Below, one piece after another: positions 6,774 to 29,514 of a stretch of DNA of 45,011 bases. The DNA comes from Escherichia phage JLBYU37: the sequence record NC_073054.1; one strand, written 5' to 3'. Each line of letters begins with the position of its first letter. Positions within the stretch are counted from its first letter, which is position 1. Position numbers and translations under genes: made by a program. The notes under the pieces are model-generated. The model was given only the letters and a program-made list of their open reading frames with translations, ran no database searches and was not told the origin of the DNA.

Positions 6774-6805
6774 TTGGTTGCATAATCATATTGGTTGCAC
6801 TATCT
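6774..6805 (+). promoter_or_regulatory. sigma70-like promoter built on two direct TTGGTTGCA copies
   Basis: TTGGTTGCA at 6774-6782 and 6791-6799; TTGCAT (6777-6782) N17 TATCTT (6800-6805). Feeds gene 6856. Confidence 0.45.
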
Positions 6806-6808
6806 TAA

Positions 6809-6838
6809 GGGTGTCCGGTTTGGACGCCCTTTTTTTTT
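6809..6838 (+). terminator. rho-independent terminator
   Basis: GGGTGTCC-ggtt-GGACGCCC hairpin followed by nine T. Confidence 0.7.
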
Positions 6839-6855
6839 AATATGAGGATTTGACG

Positions 6856-8230: not shown

Positions 8231-8697
8231 AACTACTGATTTGCGATTTGGATGGCGTTATTAACGGTTCAAGCGATGCGCGTGCCGACCTGGTGCCGGG
8301 GATAAAAACGAAATCAACCTTTTGGGTAAAGTGGCACAAAGCGCACGTTCGCGAAGACCTGAACATGGATATGCTGCCGCTACTGCGCATGTATCAAGAG
8401 CAAGGCTTCGAGATCGCGTATCTGACAAACCGGCAGCGCGAATGCTGGGACACCACCGCCGAGCAATTGGAAGTATTCCCCGTAGGGCGGTTGTTTATGC
8501 GCCACATGCTGGACGACACCCCGCCGCCAGAGTTTAAGGCGTGCGCCGTGTTCAAAATGGTCTGCTACGCGGACGTGTCAGAACTGGTCATCATTGAAGA
8601 CTGCCCGAAGAACATTGCAGCTATCCGTCGGGCGTGTAGCGATTTGGTCCCGAATATTTACGCAATAAACGTTGCGAAATTCACTTGCAACCAATAG
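8227..8697 (+). CDS. HAD-superfamily phosphatase-like protein
   Basis: 156 aa; N-terminal LICDLDGVIN resembles HAD motif I (DxDG). Confidence 0.5.
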   Translation: MKLLICDLDGVINGSSDARADLVPGIKTKSTFWVKWHKAHVREDLNMDMLPLLRMYQEQGFEIAYLTNRQRECWDTTAEQLEVFPVGRLFMRHMLDDTPPPEFKACAVFKMVCYADVSELVIIEDCPKNIAAIRRACSDLVPNIYAINVAKFTCNQ

Positions 8698-8714
8698 GTT
8701 GGTTGCACTATAGT
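8685..8714 (+). promoter_or_regulatory. palindromic operator TGCAACCAA-tagg-TTGGTTGCA overlapping a promoter
   Basis: Perfect 9-bp inverted repeat 8686-8694 / 8699-8707; TTGCAA (8685-8690) N18 TATAGT (8709-8714); upstream of gene 8760. Confidence 0.45.
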
Positions 8715-9930: not shown

Positions 9931-12344
9931 TTCTTCAACGCCGCGATCTCGGCCTTCAAATCCTCCACCTGCTTATTGAGATATTGAACACACCCCATCA
10001 AGTCCATTACGATCGGGTTAACGTCGATGGATGGGCGGTCCGTCATCTTCTCCCCGATCTTGTTGCCGTCTTCGTCGAGAATATCCTCGATCGGGAACTC
10101 GTGGTGCTTAACGTACTGCGGCGCAATTAACTCCGCTTCTTCGGCGATAATACCGAAGCGCTGGCGGGCCTGCTCATCATCCTTATACACGAAGTTAACA
10201 AGGTGCTGGCTGTTAATGCGGTCCATAGCTTCGCTTGCGTCCGCATCGGCAATATCTTTCTTATACTCGCGGCCGGATGTGCCTTGCAGCGCGATAGTCC
10301 CCGATGCGGTAGTCGGGAAGTTAAGCATAATTTCGCCGGTACGGTTCCCATCCTTACGTCGCATAAACAGGCGAAAATATCGAGTGCCGCTCTTGTCTAG
10401 TGCCGGTTCGAAGAACGTCCTACCGCCTACGACGTCGTTCGGCACGGTTTCGCCTACGGTGTAGTACGGTTCGAATGCAAATTGCGGGTAAGACCCGCGG
10501 CTTACTGCCAGGCTGCCGACGATATCTGACCCTGAACTGTTCACTGTTAGCTTGCCGGGTAGGGTCATCTCGCCGCGGGTGTTGAAGTCAATGCCTGAAC
10601 TCTGCGCCGTCTCCAGGTTAGTGATCGCCAGGCGGGCGTAAGTCTCACCGTCGATATTCGCACGGACGCGCAGCTTTGCTTCCGAGTGTAAAGAAGTACC
10701 GACACGATATTCAGATATAATGCTTCCGCCGTCTGCCGTAGTGCCCGCTGGTGGTTTAGTGGCGTCGCCGTTGATTACCGACCACGACGTGTTAGCGGCG
10801 GCGAATCCGCCTGACGCTCGAATAACCCACACGCCCATGAAGTTATTGGGGCGCAACTCCGATACGGTCCGGCCATAGATCGCGTTGACCTTCGAGGCGT
10901 CCATGTTAATGATGCCGTAGGAGACTGCGCCGTTACCAACAGGTAGGTTGCCTAGCGACCGATATTGCGAAGCCGCTCCACCAGCCCCGTGGAACGCGCC
11001 ACTTTCATGGTTGATAATACTTGCTGACCCGCCGCCGTGTAATTCGATGCGGCCTGTGATGTTAGGTGCTCCTGATTCGTAGATATACCCATCGTTGCCA
11101 CTTTGCCCGCCGTCACCCCGGCAGAACAAGCCGAATATTGACCCAGGCTGAACGCCATTACGGTCCGGCACTCGGAAGGTAGTTGTGCCGTCACCCGTAG
11201 AATACTTTCCGCGCTGATTTGGGTTTGCCAGCCAGGTCTCGTCACTAATTGGCGACAGCATTTGCGCATACGCCCAAAGCTCAGGCCAATCAGCGCGGTT
11301 TAACAATTGACCATCGGACACCACTTCGTAAGGTTGAATATACGCGCGGCTGTCCCGTAAATGGAAATCACCTACGCCATAGTTCATGACGCCGTTCATT
11401 GTAGGGCCGACAGTGCCGGTGTTGATCAGGTTCTGCACCCAGCGCTTTGTCGTGGCGTCGTAGTCACCAACAGGGTCGCCGGCCAGTGGTGTTGCCCCGT
11501 CCGGGCGAACGTTAAGCCAGGCTCGCGGTTTGTCGGTGAGTCCCGCCAGGTTGCCTGATTTTGTTAGCAGGTTATCCGCGTTAACGCTTTGCGCCCACTC
11601 CTCGGCCTGATCGCGGAATCCCTGCGCGGCTGTGCTGGCAGCTTGCGCGTCCGTCTTCGCGGTGTTGGCCTCGTCCCTCATAACGCCGGTGTCAGTCTTG
11701 ATCTGGTTCGTCTGGTCTTTGATGGCCTGCGTATCAGTCTTAATCTGGTCCGTCTGCGTCTTGATGGTATTGGTGGCGTCGTGGATAGCCTGCGTATCCG
11801 CCTTAATCTGGTCAGTCTGCGTCTTGATTGTATTGGTATCGTTTTTGAAGCCTTCGGCCTCATCCCGAAATCCTTGCGCTGCGGATTTCGATGCTTCGGC
11901 TTGCGCTGCGATGTCGCGCATCTCAACGGGGTCTACGTTCTTAAGCAATTCCGACAGGTATCCCCATGACATTCCCTGCATGACTTGCCCGTTAGGTAAC
12001 GTCACTGTGATTTCTTCAGCGTCGCCGAAGATTGCGCGCCAGTTGTTTTCATCTGCGATCATCAAGCGCAACGCTTTCTGCGCCTGTACTGTTACGCCCA
12101 TCGTTGCCAGCGACATGGTATCGCGCTTAACGCCATCCCACGCAAGGCCGGTTGCCGTTGGGCCGTCGAACGGCAGAACCAGCGTGAGCGCGGTTGCGCT
12201 TTCAATGGACGCGATTGCCACGGTGTAGGGGACTTGTCCTACCACCAGCGTTAAGAAGTCGCCAGCTTCAAACGCGGTAAACGTTGTGCCGACCCCTACT
12301 ACCGCCTTGCTATTGTTCGTTACGGATAGTGTACCCGCTGCCAT
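9927..12344 (-). CDS. tail fibre with C-terminal intramolecular chaperone (peptidase S74-like) domain
   Basis: Track ORF 9927-12371; likely start ATG 12344 (MAAGTLSV) with GAGGA upstream. Central coiled-coil repeats; C-terminus ...DADASEAMDRINSQHLVNFVYKDDEQ...LKAEIAALKK typical of self-cleaving chaperone domains. Confidence 0.8.
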   Translation of the reverse strand: MAAGTLSVTNNSKAVVGVGTTFTAFEAGDFLTLVVGQVPYTVAIASIESATALTLVLPFDGPTATGLAWDGVKRDTMSLATMGVTVQAQKALRLMIADENNWRAIFGDAEEITVTLPNGQVMQGMSWGYLSELLKNVDPVEMRDIAAQAEASKSAAQGFRDEAEGFKNDTNTIKTQTDQIKADTQAIHDATNTIKTQTDQIKTDTQAIKDQTNQIKTDTGVMRDEANTAKTDAQAASTAAQGFRDQAEEWAQSVNADNLLTKSGNLAGLTDKPRAWLNVRPDGATPLAGDPVGDYDATTKRWVQNLINTGTVGPTMNGVMNYGVGDFHLRDSRAYIQPYEVVSDGQLLNRADWPELWAYAQMLSPISDETWLANPNQRGKYSTGDGTTTFRVPDRNGVQPGSIFGLFCRGDGGQSGNDGYIYESGAPNITGRIELHGGGSASIINHESGAFHGAGGAASQYRSLGNLPVGNGAVSYGIINMDASKVNAIYGRTVSELRPNNFMGVWVIRASGGFAAANTSWSVINGDATKPPAGTTADGGSIISEYRVGTSLHSEAKLRVRANIDGETYARLAITNLETAQSSGIDFNTRGEMTLPGKLTVNSSGSDIVGSLAVSRGSYPQFAFEPYYTVGETVPNDVVGGRTFFEPALDKSGTRYFRLFMRRKDGNRTGEIMLNFPTTASGTIALQGTSGREYKKDIADADASEAMDRINSQHLVNFVYKDDEQARQRFGIIAEEAELIAPQYVKHHEFPIEDILDEDGNKIGEKMTDRPSIDVNPIVMDLMGCVQYLNKQVEDLKAEIAALKK
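11695..11841 (-). repeat. tandem ~63 bp repeats (about 2.3 copies) inside the tail fibre gene
   Basis: GTCTTGAT...CTTAATCTGGTC.GTCTGC units at 11695, 11758 and 11821 encode 21-aa repeats (TNTIKTQTDQIK.DTQAI.D). Confidence 0.6.
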
Positions 12345-12361: not shown

Positions 12362-12407
12362 TTGGTTGCAATCCTGGCTGAGCGGTGTAATACTAAAACT
12401 CAACCAA
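12362..12407 (+). promoter_or_regulatory. promoter/operator in the divergent region between tail fibre and lipoprotein genes
   Basis: TTGGTTGCA 12362-12370 supplies -35 TTGCAA (12366-12371); TAATAC at 12388-12393; inverted half-site CAACCAA at 12401-12407. Confidence 0.45.
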
Positions 12408-12424
12408 ATATAGGAGATGATACC

Positions 12425-12643
12425 ATGAAAACTTTAATTATGATTTGTGCGGTTCTTTTGTCCGGTTGCGCCGACATGCCCGCTAAAGTCTGCGACGCCA
12501 CATACCAGAATAGCGGCATGGATTATGTGGTCCCTGTGTATGGTGTTGCGGACTTCTCCGGGCATAAAATGCTAAGGGCGGGTTATCCGTTTAGCTTCCA
12601 GTACGTGTCGGTAGACCATTTCAAAAACACCACCTGCGAATAA
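12425..12643 (+). CDS. small lipoprotein (72 aa precursor), candidate receptor-blocking superinfection-exclusion protein
   Basis: AGGAG RBS; signal peptide MKTLIMICAVLLSGC with canonical lipobox; reverse orientation between tail genes. Confidence 0.6.
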   Translation: MKTLIMICAVLLSGCADMPAKVCDATYQNSGMDYVVPVYGVADFSGHKMLRAGYPFSFQYVSVDHFKNTTCE

Positions 12644-12664
12644 TCCCCGAAAGGGGATTTTCTT
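12644..12664 (+). terminator. short hairpin terminator after the lipoprotein gene
   Basis: TCCCC-gaaa-GGGGA followed by TTTTCTT. Confidence 0.5.
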
Positions 12665-13338
12665 CAATCATAATTGGCCGTGTTAATCGCCATAATCGCG
12701 TTGCCGTTGTTAGTATACCCCACCACATCCCCCGTGGCGTTCCCCGACGACGCTGCCGATATACGCGTTCGCGACCCATCAAATCTGGCCCCCGTGTACG
12801 CCGTTACCGATATTACTTGCGGCTGGCCCTGCACAAAAAACCGGATCAGCGTAGACCCCAATATGCCCGGAGCGACGGCGTAGCTGCCATTTAGCGTCTG
12901 GTCAATGTTAATCCCCCCGTTAGCGCCTGGCGATCCGACGGTAACTAAATCGCTTAGTACGCGACTCTCATTAGTAAGCACTAGCTTCCCCGTCTTATCC
13001 CAAATAGCGAAGCCCCACCGCGGAAGGGTCTGTGGGAATATGGCAAAGATGTAAGCCGTCATCGTGAAGCCTTGCCCGAATGGATTGCTGGCGCTCACCT
13101 TCACCACATTACCAACGCGAGAAGACCCTACGACGGTCGGCTGGGCGGTGTGCGTAGTTTTCACAAACGCTATTGCAGGGTAGTCACCACCCAAATTAAT
13201 ATCGGCAGCCGCCGACTGCGCAGTGCCGTTAGCCGAAGACCCAACAACCACACGGCGGAATAGACAAAACGGCGTCGATTCTGGTGTGATAAACGGGTTG
13301 CCGTTTGGTAAGTCAATCAACGCGCCGTAATTAGCCAT
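12664..13338 (-). CDS. tail-associated hypothetical protein (224 aa)
   Basis: Gly/Ser/Thr/Asn-rich beta-type sequence downstream of the gpJ-like gene; start coupled to the upstream stop. Confidence 0.5.
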   Translation of the reverse strand: MANYGALIDLPNGNPFITPESTPFCLFRRVVVGSSANGTAQSAAADINLGGDYPAIAFVKTTHTAQPTVVGSSRVGNVVKVSASNPFGQGFTMTAYIFAIFPQTLPRWGFAIWDKTGKLVLTNESRVLSDLVTVGSPGANGGINIDQTLNGSYAVAPGILGSTLIRFFVQGQPQVISVTAYTGARFDGSRTRISAASSGNATGDVVGYTNNGNAIMAINTANYD

Positions 13339-13640
13339 TATGCTCGCTCCACAAAAACAATAACGTCACATTCAGATGCGGAGTAAACCCCGCCACCTAC
13401 CGCACTTGCCGCGGAAACCGTGATAGTGTTCCCGCTGGCGGTTATTCTGCGGCCTGGCCCGACCGCGCCTTTATCCAGTGCGACCACGTATCCGACCTTC
13501 ATCCCCGCCGGTACAGGGAATGACCATGCGCCTGATTTTTGTCCTTCCGCAAGATGAATCCTTCCGATCACGCTTACCGGTTTAATGCCGTAGTTGTTTG
13601 GGCGTCCTTGCGCGTCCCACGTTGCGATACCGAATGCCAT
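13338..13640 (-). CDS. tail-associated hypothetical protein (100 aa)
   Basis: Compact ORF directly after the gpJ-like gene; no motif recognised. Confidence 0.45.
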   Translation of the reverse strand: MAFGIATWDAQGRPNNYGIKPVSVIGRIHLAEGQKSGAWSFPVPAGMKVGYVVALDKGAVGPGRRITASGNTITVSAASAVGGGVYSASECDVIVFVERA

Positions 13641-13676: not shown

Positions 13677-16600
13677 CTACCAGCTACCAGTAAGCTCACC
13701 AATCTGCACGCGGAGAACGCCGTTTCCGTCCTTCACGCTGATTCTTGTGTTCGTCTGTTTCATCCCGCCGCCGCTACCGGTGCCCAGGTTGATAAACGTT
13801 CCATCTTTCCCTAAGCGCCAGCCGCGCGTGCTGCCGTCGTAGTTATTCGATTGCAGCGTGTCTGTTATCTGCGCGAAGTTGATGGACGCGTTCTTGATGC
13901 GTGCCGTGTCGATATACACCGCGCCACCGTCCACAATAAACGCAGACGACAGCGTCCCATTGGACGGATGCATGATGTAGAACTGGTCCGCCTTGAACGC
14001 AATACGCGATTTAACCGCGTTGCCAGACGTCACAACGGAAAGCTGCATACCCGCATCATAATAAGTCCCGTTATATGTCACGCCAGCCTTAAGGCTATAC
14101 GTGGCGCTACCACCAGAGTGGTTAAACGAGGACGTCATCTTCTGCTCGATAGCGGCGGACTGCTGACCGAACTGTGTAGCGACCTGGGTCTTATATTCCG
14201 CCAGCGCTCCCGCCACGTCTGCGGTTGCCGTTTGTACCTGCTGGATGGCGGCTTCCTGTTCCCCGAACTTAGCGGCAACAGTTTGCTGGTACTGGGCGAA
14301 CGCTTGTTCCTGTGTGCTCTGCGCGGTCTGCAACGTGTGGATCGCAGCTTCCGCGTCATCAAGTCGCGTGCCGATCAACGTCTCCAGTTGAGCGACCGCC
14401 TTGTGGGCGTCCGCCGCCACGTTATACGCGACCGAGATTTCCGCATAAATACCCTTGTACTCGGCGCGGGCGTTGAACAATTGCTGCGCGTCGGTGAGCA
14501 TCGCCTCGTAAATACCCTGCGGGATCGTGTTGATTGCTTCCTGGAAGCGTTTACCATCCTCGGAAGTCAAGAACTCGTCATCAAGCCCCTTCATGTACTC
14601 GTCAACTTTGTCACTCACCTGCCCTTCAAACGGGGCCGACCAGTCCGACAGGTTGCCGATTTTATCCGCTACACGGGCGCGCAACTGCTGGTAAATTCCG
14701 AACTCCAGCGATGTTTGCGCATACTCCGCCCCCGGATATGGGACGTTGGTAAGGAATTTCCATTCAGTCTCACCGGTCTTGCGCACTTCAAGCTCGGTGT
14801 ACGAGATATCAGTAGCGGCGTTGTTGTGGTTCCACTTCCACAAGATCTGGTGAAGGCCCGAAATAGCGTTGGTGATGATTGGTGCGTTAAGCCCACCGAG
14901 ACGACCTTCCACCGGCGTGATGGCGGACGACACCCACGGAGATGAAATCTCGCCCATACCGATCGCGCGGACGCGTGCCTGGTAGTTACCGGAGAACACG
15001 TTGGGGATGTGCGCCCCATTCGACGCCGTGCGTGGGATATTCACCCAGTCGTTACCCCACTGGATTTCCATATTCTGAAGGCTGGTACGCCTCCACTGGA
15101 TTTCATACACCACGGCATCCTTCACCGGAGGGAATACAATATCCACGTTGGTGATTAGCTGCCCTTGCGATGAAATCTGCGACGGGGTGATGGTCACGGA
15201 TTCCGGCCCCTTCATTACCCCGTCAGGCACTTGCGTAAAGATACCCGGATCAAGGCGCGCGCCATTATCAACGGCATCATACTTGCTATCGTTGTACTCA
15301 ATCCCGCGCACCGAGAAAGTGCTCGTAGAGTCGTCATACTCCAGGTCGGTGATGCGGAATTTCTGCAACTGGATATCGTCGCCATCAACGCAAAACGGCT
15401 GGTCAGGAATAGGGTTGGCGTCCAGTGCGGTTTTTAGCGTTACCTTGTTGCCGTTGACGCTGGCGATCTCGCGAGTCTCCACATTACCGCTATCGGTGCG
15501 TACCAGGAACTTATCGCCAGGGCGGAATGTGATTTCGCTGTCCGTGTTCAGCACGGTACGAGTTCCGGGGTCCGACAACAGTCGACCGCCACGCGTCTCA
15601 AAACCGCCAGAAATGTTTGTATCCGCGATCGCGACTACGCTACCGGGAATAAAGAATAACCCTTCCATGCCAACTTTAAAGCTAACTTGCTGGTCAAGCT
15701 GGTTGGAAATTAGCGCCCAGTGCCCGCGACGCTGCGCTTCAGATTCACGCGTACAGCCGATCGCCGTAATATCGAGACGGTTAATCTTATGGCGGCGTAC
15801 CAGTTCGACACGTTGCCCCGTTGCGATAGCATCTTCATAGTGGTTCTTCGGGTTGCCGTATGCTACTGCGAACGTGGAGTACCGAGTTTTCTGGCTACCG
15901 GACGCGTAGTCGAAGCGCCCATCAATAACCGAGGCGTTGGTGATAGTGTGCGACACTGCTGCGACCGGTTGGTCACTGACGATATTCAACATCTGGTTGC
16001 CCCACCAGGTCATTCCGGCGAAGATGGCGGCTAAATCCTTAAGCACGGTCCAGGCATCCGTCTGTGACTGAATGTACATATCATTCTTAAAGCGGATTTC
16101 TCGGCCACCGTTGCCGTCGCTGACCAACTGATCGCAGCGCTGCGCAATCTGGTAGAGCGCGTATCGGTTTAGCATTTGCGGTTTGATACGCCGACCGAGG
16201 CCGAAGCGCTCAGTAATACAAATATCGTACCAGTGCCACGCAGGGTTATCCGTCCATGCGCGTTTAAACGTGCCGTCCCAGTCCCCGGAATAGGTATGAT
16301 TGATCGGGTCGTAGTTGTTCGGTATTAGAACTTTGCGACCTTTGCACTTAATGGACACGCGAGGGATGTTCTGGAACGCTTTGGCGTCGAACTCCACAAA
16401 CAACAGCGCGGTTAGCGGGTAACGCAGGCGGGCGTCAATAATCTCAGTGATGGACTGCACCCGGATATCATTAACCACTTTCGCCGATGTGGAGTCTGCC
16501 GTTATGCGGTGCACCTCCACGCGCCAGCCGGTGTTAACGTTCGGAGGTAATTCGATGCGGTGGTCGCGCTCATATAGCGACATTGTTTTACCAACGGCGG

Positions 16601-17096
16601 CGAATCTGAACTCACGCGGGTCGGCGTTATCCGTATACACAACTATCTTATAGTCGATGCGCCCGCCCACCAGGTCGCCATTATCTTCGTTAGTGTACAA
16701 GGCTGGAATGCCGATTCGAATGCGCACGGCGTCAAGACTGGTGTCATTAATCTGGCGCACCCACGGCGTGCCGTTTTCCAGTTTTACGCCTACGGATTGC
16801 TCACTTTCCACCGCTGAAAATCCGTGGATCACGTCCTGGTGCTGTGTGCCTGGGCGGAACTCCACGCGCGCGCCGGGGAAGTTTTCCGACAGGTCGGCGT
16901 TCTGGATCGGAGTGCCGTCCAGATATACACGCTGCCGTAATTCGCTGTCGCTGGTAATACTTTCGAATTCCCCTTCCCCTAGCGCAAGCAAGATGCGGAT
17001 TTTAGCCAGGGAATGCAGGCTATCCGGCGTTTCCTGCGGGGTGTGCTGTTTGCCGCCGCCGCCTTTATGCCCTGTGACGTCGTAGATAATCGTCAT
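13677..17096 (-). CDS. central tail fibre / host-specificity protein (lambda gpJ-like)
   Basis: 1139 aa; size and position after gpI/K/L/M-like genes. Confidence 0.8.
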   Translation of the reverse strand: MTIIYDVTGHKGGGGKQHTPQETPDSLHSLAKIRILLALGEGEFESITSDSELRQRVYLDGTPIQNADLSENFPGARVEFRPGTQHQDVIHGFSAVESEQSVGVKLENGTPWVRQINDTSLDAVRIRIGIPALYTNEDNGDLVGGRIDYKIVVYTDNADPREFRFAAVGKTMSLYERDHRIELPPNVNTGWRVEVHRITADSTSAKVVNDIRVQSITEIIDARLRYPLTALLFVEFDAKAFQNIPRVSIKCKGRKVLIPNNYDPINHTYSGDWDGTFKRAWTDNPAWHWYDICITERFGLGRRIKPQMLNRYALYQIAQRCDQLVSDGNGGREIRFKNDMYIQSQTDAWTVLKDLAAIFAGMTWWGNQMLNIVSDQPVAAVSHTITNASVIDGRFDYASGSQKTRYSTFAVAYGNPKNHYEDAIATGQRVELVRRHKINRLDITAIGCTRESEAQRRGHWALISNQLDQQVSFKVGMEGLFFIPGSVVAIADTNISGGFETRGGRLLSDPGTRTVLNTDSEITFRPGDKFLVRTDSGNVETREIASVNGNKVTLKTALDANPIPDQPFCVDGDDIQLQKFRITDLEYDDSTSTFSVRGIEYNDSKYDAVDNGARLDPGIFTQVPDGVMKGPESVTITPSQISSQGQLITNVDIVFPPVKDAVVYEIQWRRTSLQNMEIQWGNDWVNIPRTASNGAHIPNVFSGNYQARVRAIGMGEISSPWVSSAITPVEGRLGGLNAPIITNAISGLHQILWKWNHNNAATDISYTELEVRKTGETEWKFLTNVPYPGAEYAQTSLEFGIYQQLRARVADKIGNLSDWSAPFEGQVSDKVDEYMKGLDDEFLTSEDGKRFQEAINTIPQGIYEAMLTDAQQLFNARAEYKGIYAEISVAYNVAADAHKAVAQLETLIGTRLDDAEAAIHTLQTAQSTQEQAFAQYQQTVAAKFGEQEAAIQQVQTATADVAGALAEYKTQVATQFGQQSAAIEQKMTSSFNHSGGSATYSLKAGVTYNGTYYDAGMQLSVVTSGNAVKSRIAFKADQFYIMHPSNGTLSSAFIVDGGAVYIDTARIKNASINFAQITDTLQSNNYDGSTRGWRLGKDGTFINLGTGSGGGMKQTNTRISVKDGNGVLRVQIGELTGSW

Positions 17097-28446: not shown

Positions 28447-28490
28447 TTGCAATCCGGGTGTTGGTTGCATATATTGGTTGCACACCAACC
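28447..28490 (+). promoter_or_regulatory. sigma70-like promoter with two TTGGTTGCA copies and a GGTTG-cacac-CAACC palindrome at the start site
   Basis: TTGCAA (28447-28452) N17 TATATT (28470-28475); motif at 28461-28469 and 28474-28482; palindrome 28476-28490; GAGGA RBS 7 nt before ATG 28505. Confidence 0.6.
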
Positions 28491-28504
28491 ACGAGGACAC
28501 ATAA

Positions 28505-29269
28505 ATGAGACTGACAAAAGACATTAAAAACCAGATTCTGGCTAACATACTGCGCGACCACGAAATCGCAACCGAAGCCAAATCAATCATGATGGACTCT
28601 CGAAATCTGGCGTACGCCATTACGCTTGACTGTATGCCGGAAGGCATTCATTCGTTCGCCGAGCTACGTGAGCGCATTGAAGCAATCGGCGATGACCCGT
28701 CGCAGATGTACGGCGTCTGTGTGTACACCAACAAGGCGACGTATAGATATGACGCCGACGCCCCATATGGTATCGGCAGCGTTTACGACGCCACTTTCGA
28801 AATCAACGCAGGCGGAAACGTCCGTACCATGTCATTGAGCGGAGACGGACACCGATCCCGAGTACATCGCGGATACTGGGAGTATAAATACATGAATAAA
28901 CTGTCTCCCGATCTCGGCGATATTGTGCCAGGGTATGAGGAAATTTTGTTAGCGGCAGTGTGCGAAGTCGACGACGACGGGAAAGCGCTGCCGATATATA
29001 AGCCACGCGGTCGTATAGACTACCCGGCTGGTCATGATTTATGCAAGCGCCTGGACCGTAACGACAAGGCCCGCCGTGAGTTGCGTGCTAAGTATGACGC
29101 GTTCAAACTAACTGTTACCGGCGTGCTGGATATGCACAATACAGATAAGAAGCTGATCAAGGCGTGGCCTGAAGTTGAACAGTTCATTCCTTACCCGGAC
29201 AAGCCGAAGTCCACGGCGGTGGCGCTGGACGTGAAAACACTAAACGAGATTTGCGGTATCCCGCGCTAA
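28505..29269 (+). CDS. hypothetical protein (254 aa), reverse-oriented moron in the head module
   Basis: Strong RBS and own promoter; opposite strand to all neighbouring structural genes; no motif recognised; flanked by a bidirectional terminator. Confidence 0.6.
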   Translation: MRLTKDIKNQILANILRDHEIATEAKSIMMDSRNLAYAITLDCMPEGIHSFAELRERIEAIGDDPSQMYGVCVYTNKATYRYDADAPYGIGSVYDATFEINAGGNVRTMSLSGDGHRSRVHRGYWEYKYMNKLSPDLGDIVPGYEEILLAAVCEVDDDGKALPIYKPRGRIDYPAGHDLCKRLDRNDKARRELRAKYDAFKLTVTGVLDMHNTDKKLIKAWPEVEQFIPYPDKPKSTAVALDVKTLNEICGIPR

Positions 29270-29275
29270 CGAAAA

Positions 29276-29305
29276 GGGGGCCATCACTGCCCCCGAATTA
29301 TTTTC
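29276..29305. terminator. bidirectional hairpin terminator
   Basis: GGGGGC-catcact-GCCCCC flanked by A/T-rich runs on both sides; between moron (+) and o-spanin (-). Confidence 0.5.
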
Positions 29306-29514
29306 TGCAACTCCAGCACTTGCGCCCGCAGCTTCGCACCACACTCCATATTTTTAACATCAACCAGCAAATCTTCGTCTGGATCTGCCGAGGCATTCTC
29401 AAAGGTGCAAGGTGGCCTATAGACCGACTCGGTTAGCGGCGTCGATGGCACGTTGCTTGATCCGCACGCGCTCATCATCAAAACTGCAATCAGGACGGTT
29501 AGGACGCGTAACAT
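29284..29514 (-). CDS. candidate o-spanin (outer-membrane lipoprotein), overlapped architecture
   Basis: 76 aa; signal LTVLIAVLMMSACGS with lipobox-like Cys; starts inside the i-spanin-like ORF in another frame and extends past it. Confidence 0.45.
   Translation of the reverse strand: MLRVLTVLIAVLMMSACGSSNVPSTPLTESVYRPPCTFENASADPDEDLLVDVKNMECGAKLRAQVLELQKIIRGQ

Follow-up and report, generated by a model that had tools for sequence, protein, structure and literature searches.

The cor gene of the virulent, FhuA-dependent coliphage JLBYU37 is linked to a host-recognition cassette and probably acts on FhuA in the manner of T5 Llp

Introduction

The lipoprotein Llp of phage T5 (PDB 8A60 chain B; 7QJF) binds the periplasmic face of FhuA, whereupon the extracellular loops of the receptor rearrange allosterically, and a disulfide between C11 and C58 that links the N- and C-terminal parts of Llp is essential (Llp literature, including the 2026 Llp preprint). 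Cor inactivates FhuA as well, and Cor and Llp share a fold (KanT1 paper; Llp preprint); in an AlphaFold3 model from the KanT1 paper, a T1-like Cor is docked on the periplasmic side of FhuA with an ipTM of 0.84. Exclusion combined with inactivation of FhuA is known for the Cor proteins of phi80, mEp167, HK022 and T1, according to the works cited there. Rtp45 (PDB 9RPS) of LptD-targeting small siphophages is likewise a lipoprotein of the periplasm by which a phage disables its own receptor, but its mature sequence is unrelated to that of Cor, its target is LptDE, and the blocking is steric rather than allosteric.

At the genome level, the receptor can be predicted from a hypervariable receptor-binding-protein locus located after gpJ, taken together with the cognate exclusion protein (Maffei 2021; 2026 receptor-prediction preprint), and the extended cor cassette tracks the use of FhuA (KanT1 paper 2026).

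Here we analyze a small lipoprotein gene of Escherichia phage JLBYU37 in its genomic context. All coordinates refer to the window, that is, the entire stretch of 45,011 nucleotides that was analyzed (NC_073054.1). The J protein encoded in the window exactly matches UGO56832.1 of JLBYU37, a virulent T1-like coliphage of the genus Dhillonvirus. This phage was isolated as FhuA-dependent, and deletion of loop 8 of FhuA blocks infection completely (PMC10373560), so that FhuA as the terminal receptor, which is expected of a Cor carrier, is documented for JLBYU37 by the same study.

The cor gene and its product

The gene and its immediate surroundings are as follows:

12425-12643, plus strand: cor coding sequence, from the ATG at 12425 to the TAA at 12641-12643, encoding a 72-aa prolipoprotein
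12412-12416, plus strand: Shine-Dalgarno sequence AGGAG, 8 nt 5' of the ATG; AGGAG or GGGGA in relatives
12425-12466, plus strand: signal peptide of cor, followed by the codon for the putative lipidated Cys15 (12467-12469); the mature protein comprises 58 aa
9927-12344/12371, minus strand: lateral tail fiber gene (805/814 aa) with a Peptidase_S74 chaperone domain and matches to tail fiber PHROGs
12664-13338, minus strand: 224-aa gene (phrog_425, E 4.6e-70), homolog of phi80 gp23, N15 gp23 and T1 ST31

Translation of the open reading frame at 12425-12643 (plus strand) yields the 72-residue protein MKTLIMICAVLLSGCADMPAKVCDATYQNSGMDYVVPVYGVADFSGHKMLRAGYPFSFQYVSVDHFKNTTCE. Its N-terminus reads MKTLIMICAVLLSGC followed by ADMP, with Ala at position +2; Lys2 is followed by a hydrophobic core of 10 residues and by the lipobox L-S-G-C (LLSG ahead of the Cys). 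The product thus has the makeup of a lipoprotein-type precursor of about 70-80 aa, with a signal peptide and a lipobox Cys (MKTLIMICAVLLSG preceding the C, and Ala at +2), and a PROSITE-like lipoprotein rule is satisfied by only 4 of the window's 566 frames that begin with Met and reach 40 aa. An initial reading of the DNA made without database searches (hereinafter, the sequence-only reading) had described a 72-aa precursor with a canonical lipobox on the strand opposite to the tail genes, and both points are borne out by the open reading frame, the L-S-G-C box with Cys15 and the rarity of the pattern, and by the location of cor on the plus strand between the lateral fiber and 224-aa genes, both of which are on the minus strand.

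A longer version of the same frame, with a TTG start at 12362, is also listed for the window; in the protein alignment, the Met encoded at 12425 coincides with the starts of the T1, phi80 and N15 homologs. Pairwise dN/dS values for six Dhillonvirus alleles of cor range from 0.03 to 0.25, and the frame at 12425-12643 is therefore a real, translated gene on which purifying selection is strong.

Another open reading frame with a lipoprotein signal is located at 29284-29514 on the minus strand; its 76-aa product (MLRVLTVLIAVLMMSAC followed by GSSNVPSTPL) is Pro-rich and may be an outer membrane spanin.

Membership in the Cor family

The protein is recognized by the NCBIfam equivalog model NF047972, 'phage exclusion lipoprotein Cor' (lamb_exclu_cor), over residues 2-72 with a score of 56.3 bits, against a cut-off of 31, and by phrog_1119, 'Cor superinfection exclusion protein', over residues 1-72 with an E-value of 3e-26; Pfam returned no family for Cor or for the two proteins of 100 and 224 aa encoded next to it. 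When Cor was compared by tblastn with 50,697 phage records, 241 full-length matches were obtained, including phages of the HK and mEp lambdoid series, and the identities amounted to 46.6% for cor of T1 (E 1e-13), 41.6% for cor of phi80 and 40.5% for gene 24 of N15. A homolog search with the Cor protein alone recovered 6 near-identical proteins, and a profile built from this protein together with the Cor proteins of T1, phi80 and N15 reached 206 homologs. In the alignment with T1, phi80 and N15 Cor, the lipobox C15, C23, C71 and the RAGYPF motif (R51-F56) are invariant, and all three Cys, including those at mature positions 9 and 57, are invariant in 95 homologs. On this homology, the encoded protein is a full-length member of the Cor family.

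Among the described relatives, T1 Cor (ST30, YP_003915) is 47% identical over the full length and has the lipobox, the Cys pair and RAGYPF as in JLBYU37. The Cor proteins of phi80, N15, HK022 and the mEp series, at 40-42% identity, have the same precursor architecture and are encoded in the same cassette after J; the phi80 record annotates Cor as FhuA-blocking. The mature Cor of JLBYU37 is 3-5 residues shorter than that of the temperate phages.

Within the genus, the protein sequence is identical to UGO56829.1 (JLBYU37) and to UGO51146.1, annotated as 'super-infection exclusion protein' (Teewinot), and the region is 98.8% identical to Dhillonvirus genomes whose records list the gene as Cor or as super-infection exclusion protein. 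Cor at 60% identity or more was found in 75 phage records, and the N-terminal part of J at 90% identity or more in 156; therefore, about half of the Dhillonvirus records carry cor. Eight records labeled 'Campylobacter phage' (e.g., A13a, A110b and A16a) contain homologs of Cor and of the 224-aa protein with 45-55% identity; such values are typical of T1-like coliphages, and the host labels look doubtful.

The essentials of the gene are already annotated or published, so that the sequence-only find was correct but ordinary. The label of the sister phage in GenBank (UGO51146.1), the curated NCBI model and the structural kinship of Cor and Llp are all on record, and so is the connection between the Cor cassette and FhuA (reportedly Wietzorrek 2006; Maffei 2021; KanT1 paper 2026).

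The recognition cassette and its unit of exchange

In addition to the 224-aa gene, two elements on the far side of cor are relevant:

13338-13640, minus strand: 100-aa gene (phrog_557, E 1.1e-32), homolog of phi80 gp22, N15 gp22 and T1 ST32
13677-13837, minus strand: tip of J, its last ~53 codons, delimited by the break of homology with locus L019; the entire J-like tail tip gene spans 13677-17096

The order J, 100-aa gene, 224-aa gene, cor is common to the window, T1, phi80 and N15. The locus of the 224-aa gene is treated in the literature as a receptor-binding-protein locus (Maffei 2021; KanT1 paper; 2026 receptor-prediction preprint), and we consider the 224-aa protein a candidate receptor-binding protein in an FhuA-specific host-recognition cassette. 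T1, which is virulent and uses FhuA, has the same cassette, with cor convergent with the homolog of the 224-aa gene; the gene upstream of cor in T1 is recE (annotated as exonuclease VIII), whereas in JLBYU37 it is the lateral fiber gene. In JLBYU37, as in T1, cor is antisense to the tail operon of a virulent phage, whereas it runs in the direction of the tail genes in the temperate phages phi80 and N15, as a lysogenic-conversion moron expressed from the prophage. The layout also differs from that in T5, where llp presumably adjoins and diverges from the receptor-binding gene pb5 (oad): the cassette neighbors of JLBYU37 cor, that is, the 224-aa and 100-aa genes, are convergent with cor. The T5 protein pb5, the partner of Llp, is not evidently related to the module of J tip, 100-aa and 224-aa proteins.

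The linkage within the genus was assessed by cross-tabulating 16 Dhillonvirus loci that were chosen by the conserved N-terminal part of J. All cor-positive loci contain the 100-aa and 224-aa genes and match the J C-terminus in full; all cor-negative loci lack both genes, and their J C-terminal segment is matched over 79% of its length only, with divergence in the last fifth. In the comparison with the non-Cor locus L019, 98% homology extends up to 12473 (cor codon 17, just past the lipobox) and restarts at 13838, ~53 codons before the end of J. These breakpoints define an exchange unit that extends from the J tip through the 100-aa and 224-aa genes to mature Cor; thus, cor is inherited as one unit with these elements, in line with the published receptor-binding-protein locus after gpJ and its cognate exclusion protein. 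Where cor and the two genes occur together, use of FhuA is predicted, which is of value for annotation and receptor prediction, and the exchange unit, from ~53 codons before the J end to cor codon 17, should be useful for host-range engineering with receptor-matched exclusion.

All 16 loci have, in the slot and orientation of cor, a lipoprotein gene for 72-81 aa that is preceded by the same promoter. Apart from Cor, three arrangements were observed. In the first, the lipoprotein has 73 aa and precedes a 321-aa protein; in the second, it has 72-76 aa and precedes one of 310-311 aa; in the third, a lipoprotein of 80-81 aa lies beside an extended J of 1272-1280 aa. The variants in the slot include L019 13475-14664, L013 13476-14638, L018 13851-14093 and L017 13817-14062. 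In two of the non-Cor types, a putative receptor-binding gene (310-321 aa) is located 3' of the lipoprotein gene on the same antisense strand, in contrast to the 224-aa gene, which is opposite to cor; the type with the extended J (~1275 aa) has no separate receptor-binding gene. The lipoproteins of types B and C in the slots of sister Dhillonviruses appear, by analogy with published systems, to be Rtp45-like. These putative Rtp45-type lipoproteins occupy the exact slot of cor behind the same promoter, sometimes with the same signal peptide, and one non-Cor lipoprotein type contains exactly the Cor signal peptide MKTLIMICAVLLSGCA.

The cor-positive Dhillonviruses have two alleles of the 224-aa gene that are 53% identical, with 71-72% identity for the 100-aa protein and 85-89% for Cor (L007 13763-14434, L011 and L016 compared with 12664-13338 of the window). 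Therefore, at least two FhuA-type recognition modules exist in the genus, in combination with nearly the same Cor.

Predicted structure and probable mode of action

The 58 mature residues were modeled with AlphaFold2 on an alignment of 95 sequences, which yielded a small four-stranded beta structure with a mean pLDDT of 88.5. By structure comparison, the nearest neighbor of the model is T5 Llp as present in the complex with FhuA, and the model thus shows the small beta fold typical of Llp. The Foldseek search was less decisive, with Llp in 11th place (E 0.11), yet Llp had the best two-way TM-scores, 0.61 and 0.58. At the sequence level, the similarity of T5 Llp and Cor is marginal: a phmmer search of PDB sequences with Cor gave no hit, and with the Cor profile Llp was the best PDB match (E 0.0043, 20 bits), in an alignment over positions 1-45 that mostly covers the signal peptide. 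Cys9 and Cys57 of mature Cor are located at positions equivalent to C11 and C58 of Llp.

Combined with the Llp precedent, these results suggest the following course of events. As family knowledge implies, Sec would export the precursor, which would then receive its lipid at Cys15 and be processed by signal peptidase II, and the Ala at +2 would direct Lol sorting of Cor to the outer membrane. There the mature 58-residue beta-barrel, probably clamped by a Cys9-Cys57 disulfide like the C11-C58 bond of Llp, would bind the periplasmic face or the plug of FhuA and rearrange its extracellular loops, so that FhuA-dependent phages, JLBYU37 among them, could not adsorb. Since JLBYU37 needs loop 8, an Llp-like action would exclude this phage itself. 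Uptake of ferrichrome by FhuA would be blocked as well. For a lytic phage, the pay-off would be that the infected cell is spared superinfection and the progeny is spared adsorption to FhuA in cell debris. By analogy with Llp, Cor most likely shuts the FhuA of the host from the periplasmic side.

The sequence-only reading had proposed a receptor-blocking exclusion lipoprotein of the Cor type, similar to Llp, and this assignment is upheld by NF047972 and phrog_1119, the full-length homology to Cor, the Llp-like predicted fold and the use of FhuA by the phage. Its notion that the receptor is masked is probably wrong, given that the solved mechanism of Llp involves periplasmic binding and allosteric rearrangement of the loops. 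Altogether, we regard it as quite probable that 12425-12643 represents cor of JLBYU37, a virulent phage dependent on FhuA, and that this gene is linked to the recognition cassette and closes FhuA in an Llp-like manner.

Alternative interpretations

An indirect action of Cor, either through other outer membrane proteins such as OmpA and porins or after adsorption, for example on DNA entry, appears unlikely but deserves consideration: a requirement of Cor for other outer membrane proteins is attributed to Arguijo-Hernandez 2018 in the KanT1 paper, the 2026 Llp preprint notes that the molecular mechanism of Cor is not yet elucidated, and the sequence similarity of Cor to Llp is, as indicated above, marginal. 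Direct closure of FhuA is better compatible with FhuA-bound Llp being the best structural neighbor of the Cor model, with the conservation of the N-to-C Cys pair as in Llp, with the published AlphaFold3 placement of Cor on the FhuA periplasmic face (ipTM 0.84) and with the strict co-occurrence of cor and the FhuA-type cassette. We assign a very low probability to an entirely different role, namely an outer membrane spanin or other lysis component or a periplasmic helper of the 224-aa protein. A small predicted outer membrane lipoprotein in a phage genome could in principle be any of these, and the 100-aa and 224-aa neighbors are named 'outer membrane' and 'membrane associated' protein in the database; however, cor lies outside any lysis module, the family models name Cor above the curated cut-off, the separate 76-aa lipobox frame at 29284-29514 is a possible spanin candidate, and tail assembly takes place in the cytoplasm, whereas Cor would be exported.

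The least probable of the alternatives, with hardly any weight in our assessment, is a pairing of Cor with the lateral fiber, such that Cor would block the receptor of the fiber (LPS or O-antigen) or aid its function. The two genes are adjacent and divergent, with a common intergenic region of 80 bp, and the sequence-only reading had implied such a partnership, with co-variation of the lipoprotein and the fiber in related phages as the expected sign. Among the 16 loci, the fiber allele is independent of cor: L019 encodes a fiber that is 95-98% identical, together with a different lipoprotein and a 321-aa putative receptor-binding protein and without cor, and L006-L008 have cor with fibers whose distal parts are unrelated. 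There is thus no co-variation of fiber and cor, and the partnership is therefore rejected; furthermore, cor of T1 is located 3 kb from the fiber gene, and the intergenic region common to the two genes stays constant whichever lipoprotein allele is present. The lateral fiber is a neighbor of cor, not its functional partner, and closure of FhuA by Cor is the interpretation that we retain. Within the fiber, residues ~175-245 (~11620-11820, minus strand) include the near-repeats TNTIKTQTDQIKADTQAIHDA, TNTIKTQTDQIKTDTQAIKDQ and TNQIKTDTG, which might possibly, as a guess, form a coiled-coil shaft.

Predicted promoter and terminator of cor

The following signals flank the coding sequence:

12362-12394, plus strand: promoter-like region of cor, read from the sequence and its conservation, including the TTGGTTGCA motif at 12362-12370
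12642-12665, plus strand: predicted intrinsic terminator, a hairpin with a U-rich tail, from folding and conservation

The promoter-like region combines a -35 element TTGCAA (12366-12371), a 17-bp spacer, a TGn element (12386-12388) and a -10 element AATACT (12389-12394), that is, 8 of the 12 consensus positions plus the TG of an extended -10. Because a score of 9 of 12 is needed in the consensus promoter scanner that we used, this region was not called. The 80-bp region between cor and the fiber gene is nearly invariant in 15 of 16 related Dhillonvirus loci; in the aligned loci, the promoter-like region is kept 5' of every lipoprotein allele, and the -10 area varies solely by T or C at the 'n' of TGn, which favors the extended -10 reading. 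The predicted promoter is plausible, not strong. For the promoter claimed from the sequence alone, at 12366-12393 and sharing the motif, the region is conserved and contains TTGGTTGCA, and the match to consensus is weak (8/12, with the scanner silent).

A terminator had also been claimed for cor. The hairpin AAUCCCC-GAAA-GGGGAUU at 12642-12659 is followed by UUCUUC and takes up all of the 20 bp that separate cor from the convergent 224-aa gene. Folding on the plus strand gave -12.8 kcal/mol and a z-score of -3.1, compared with a z-score of -1.5 on the minus strand, where the hairpin may also be weakly active. Relatives have the stem AGCCCC/GGGGCT, in which a T:A pair is replaced by G:C in a compensatory manner, and their loops differ. 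The terminator scanner made no call at this hairpin, which was judged instead from its sequence, folding and conservation; in T1, the record shows a terminator at the corresponding site, between cor and the homolog of the 224-aa gene.

The promoter scanner flagged two minus-strand sites in the vicinity, at 12437-12464 (inside the signal-peptide codons of cor) and at 12657-12686 (at the end of the 224-aa gene). The site at 12464-12437 was rejected as the promoter of the fiber gene, the stretch being unconserved in loci with other signal peptides. For transcription of the lateral fiber gene past the antisense cor, the candidates are read-through of the hairpin, which is weak on the minus strand, and an internal promoter.

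The TTGGTTGCA motif

Of the side observations, the TTGGTTGCA motif is of most interest: it is conserved in the genus and undescribed in the searchable literature, where a search for it found only unrelated primer sequences. The window contains 11 copies, compared with 0.5 expected, and none of 100 shuffled sequences reached 11. The copies are located as follows:

6774, 6791, 8699, 12362, 28461, 28474 and 38302, plus strand: TTGGTTGCA
8686, 38834, 38865 and 42142, minus strand: TTGGTTGCA

Tandem pairs are spaced by 13, 17 or 31 bp, and a perfect palindrome, TGCAACCAA-N4-TTGGTTGCA, is present at 8686-8707. The motif recurs at syntenic positions in Dhillonvirus loci and is absent from the T1, phi80 and N15 loci, so that the cor locus of the window differs in this respect from that of T1. 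A promoter or operator element specific to the genus is one possible role of TTGGTTGCA. As a promoter motif common to cor and the left-hand nonstructural genes on the plus strand, it suggests early expression of cor.

A broader interpretation, which we put forward as a rather doubtful one, is that the promoter, the 5' UTR and the first 5-16 codons form a socket that takes receptor-specific lipoproteins, with TTGGTTGCA marking an early regulon and antisense transcription causing a late shut-off. If so, exclusion lipoproteins would be recombined in together with their receptor-binding genes, TTGGTTGCA would be the operator or promoter of an undescribed phage-specific early regulon that turns cor on early, and convergent late tail transcription across the antisense cor would turn it off.

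Elsewhere in the window, two promoter-like regions, at 28449-28505 (plus strand) and 38873-38805 (minus strand), have a common 20-nt block, TATATTGGTTGCACACCAAC. In these regions, TATATT is located 17 bp after TTGCAA or TTGCAT, the block includes the inverted repeat TTGGT...ACCAA, and both regions lie ~15-25 nt 5' of a Shine-Dalgarno sequence and ATG. At 6774-6850 (plus strand), the tandem motif pair is directly followed by a GC-rich hairpin with nine T (GGGTGTCCGGTTTGGACGCCC-T9), with the next gene starting at 6850; this combination of promoter-like and terminator-like elements might represent an attenuator or a small RNA, or might serve to terminate the upstream gene.
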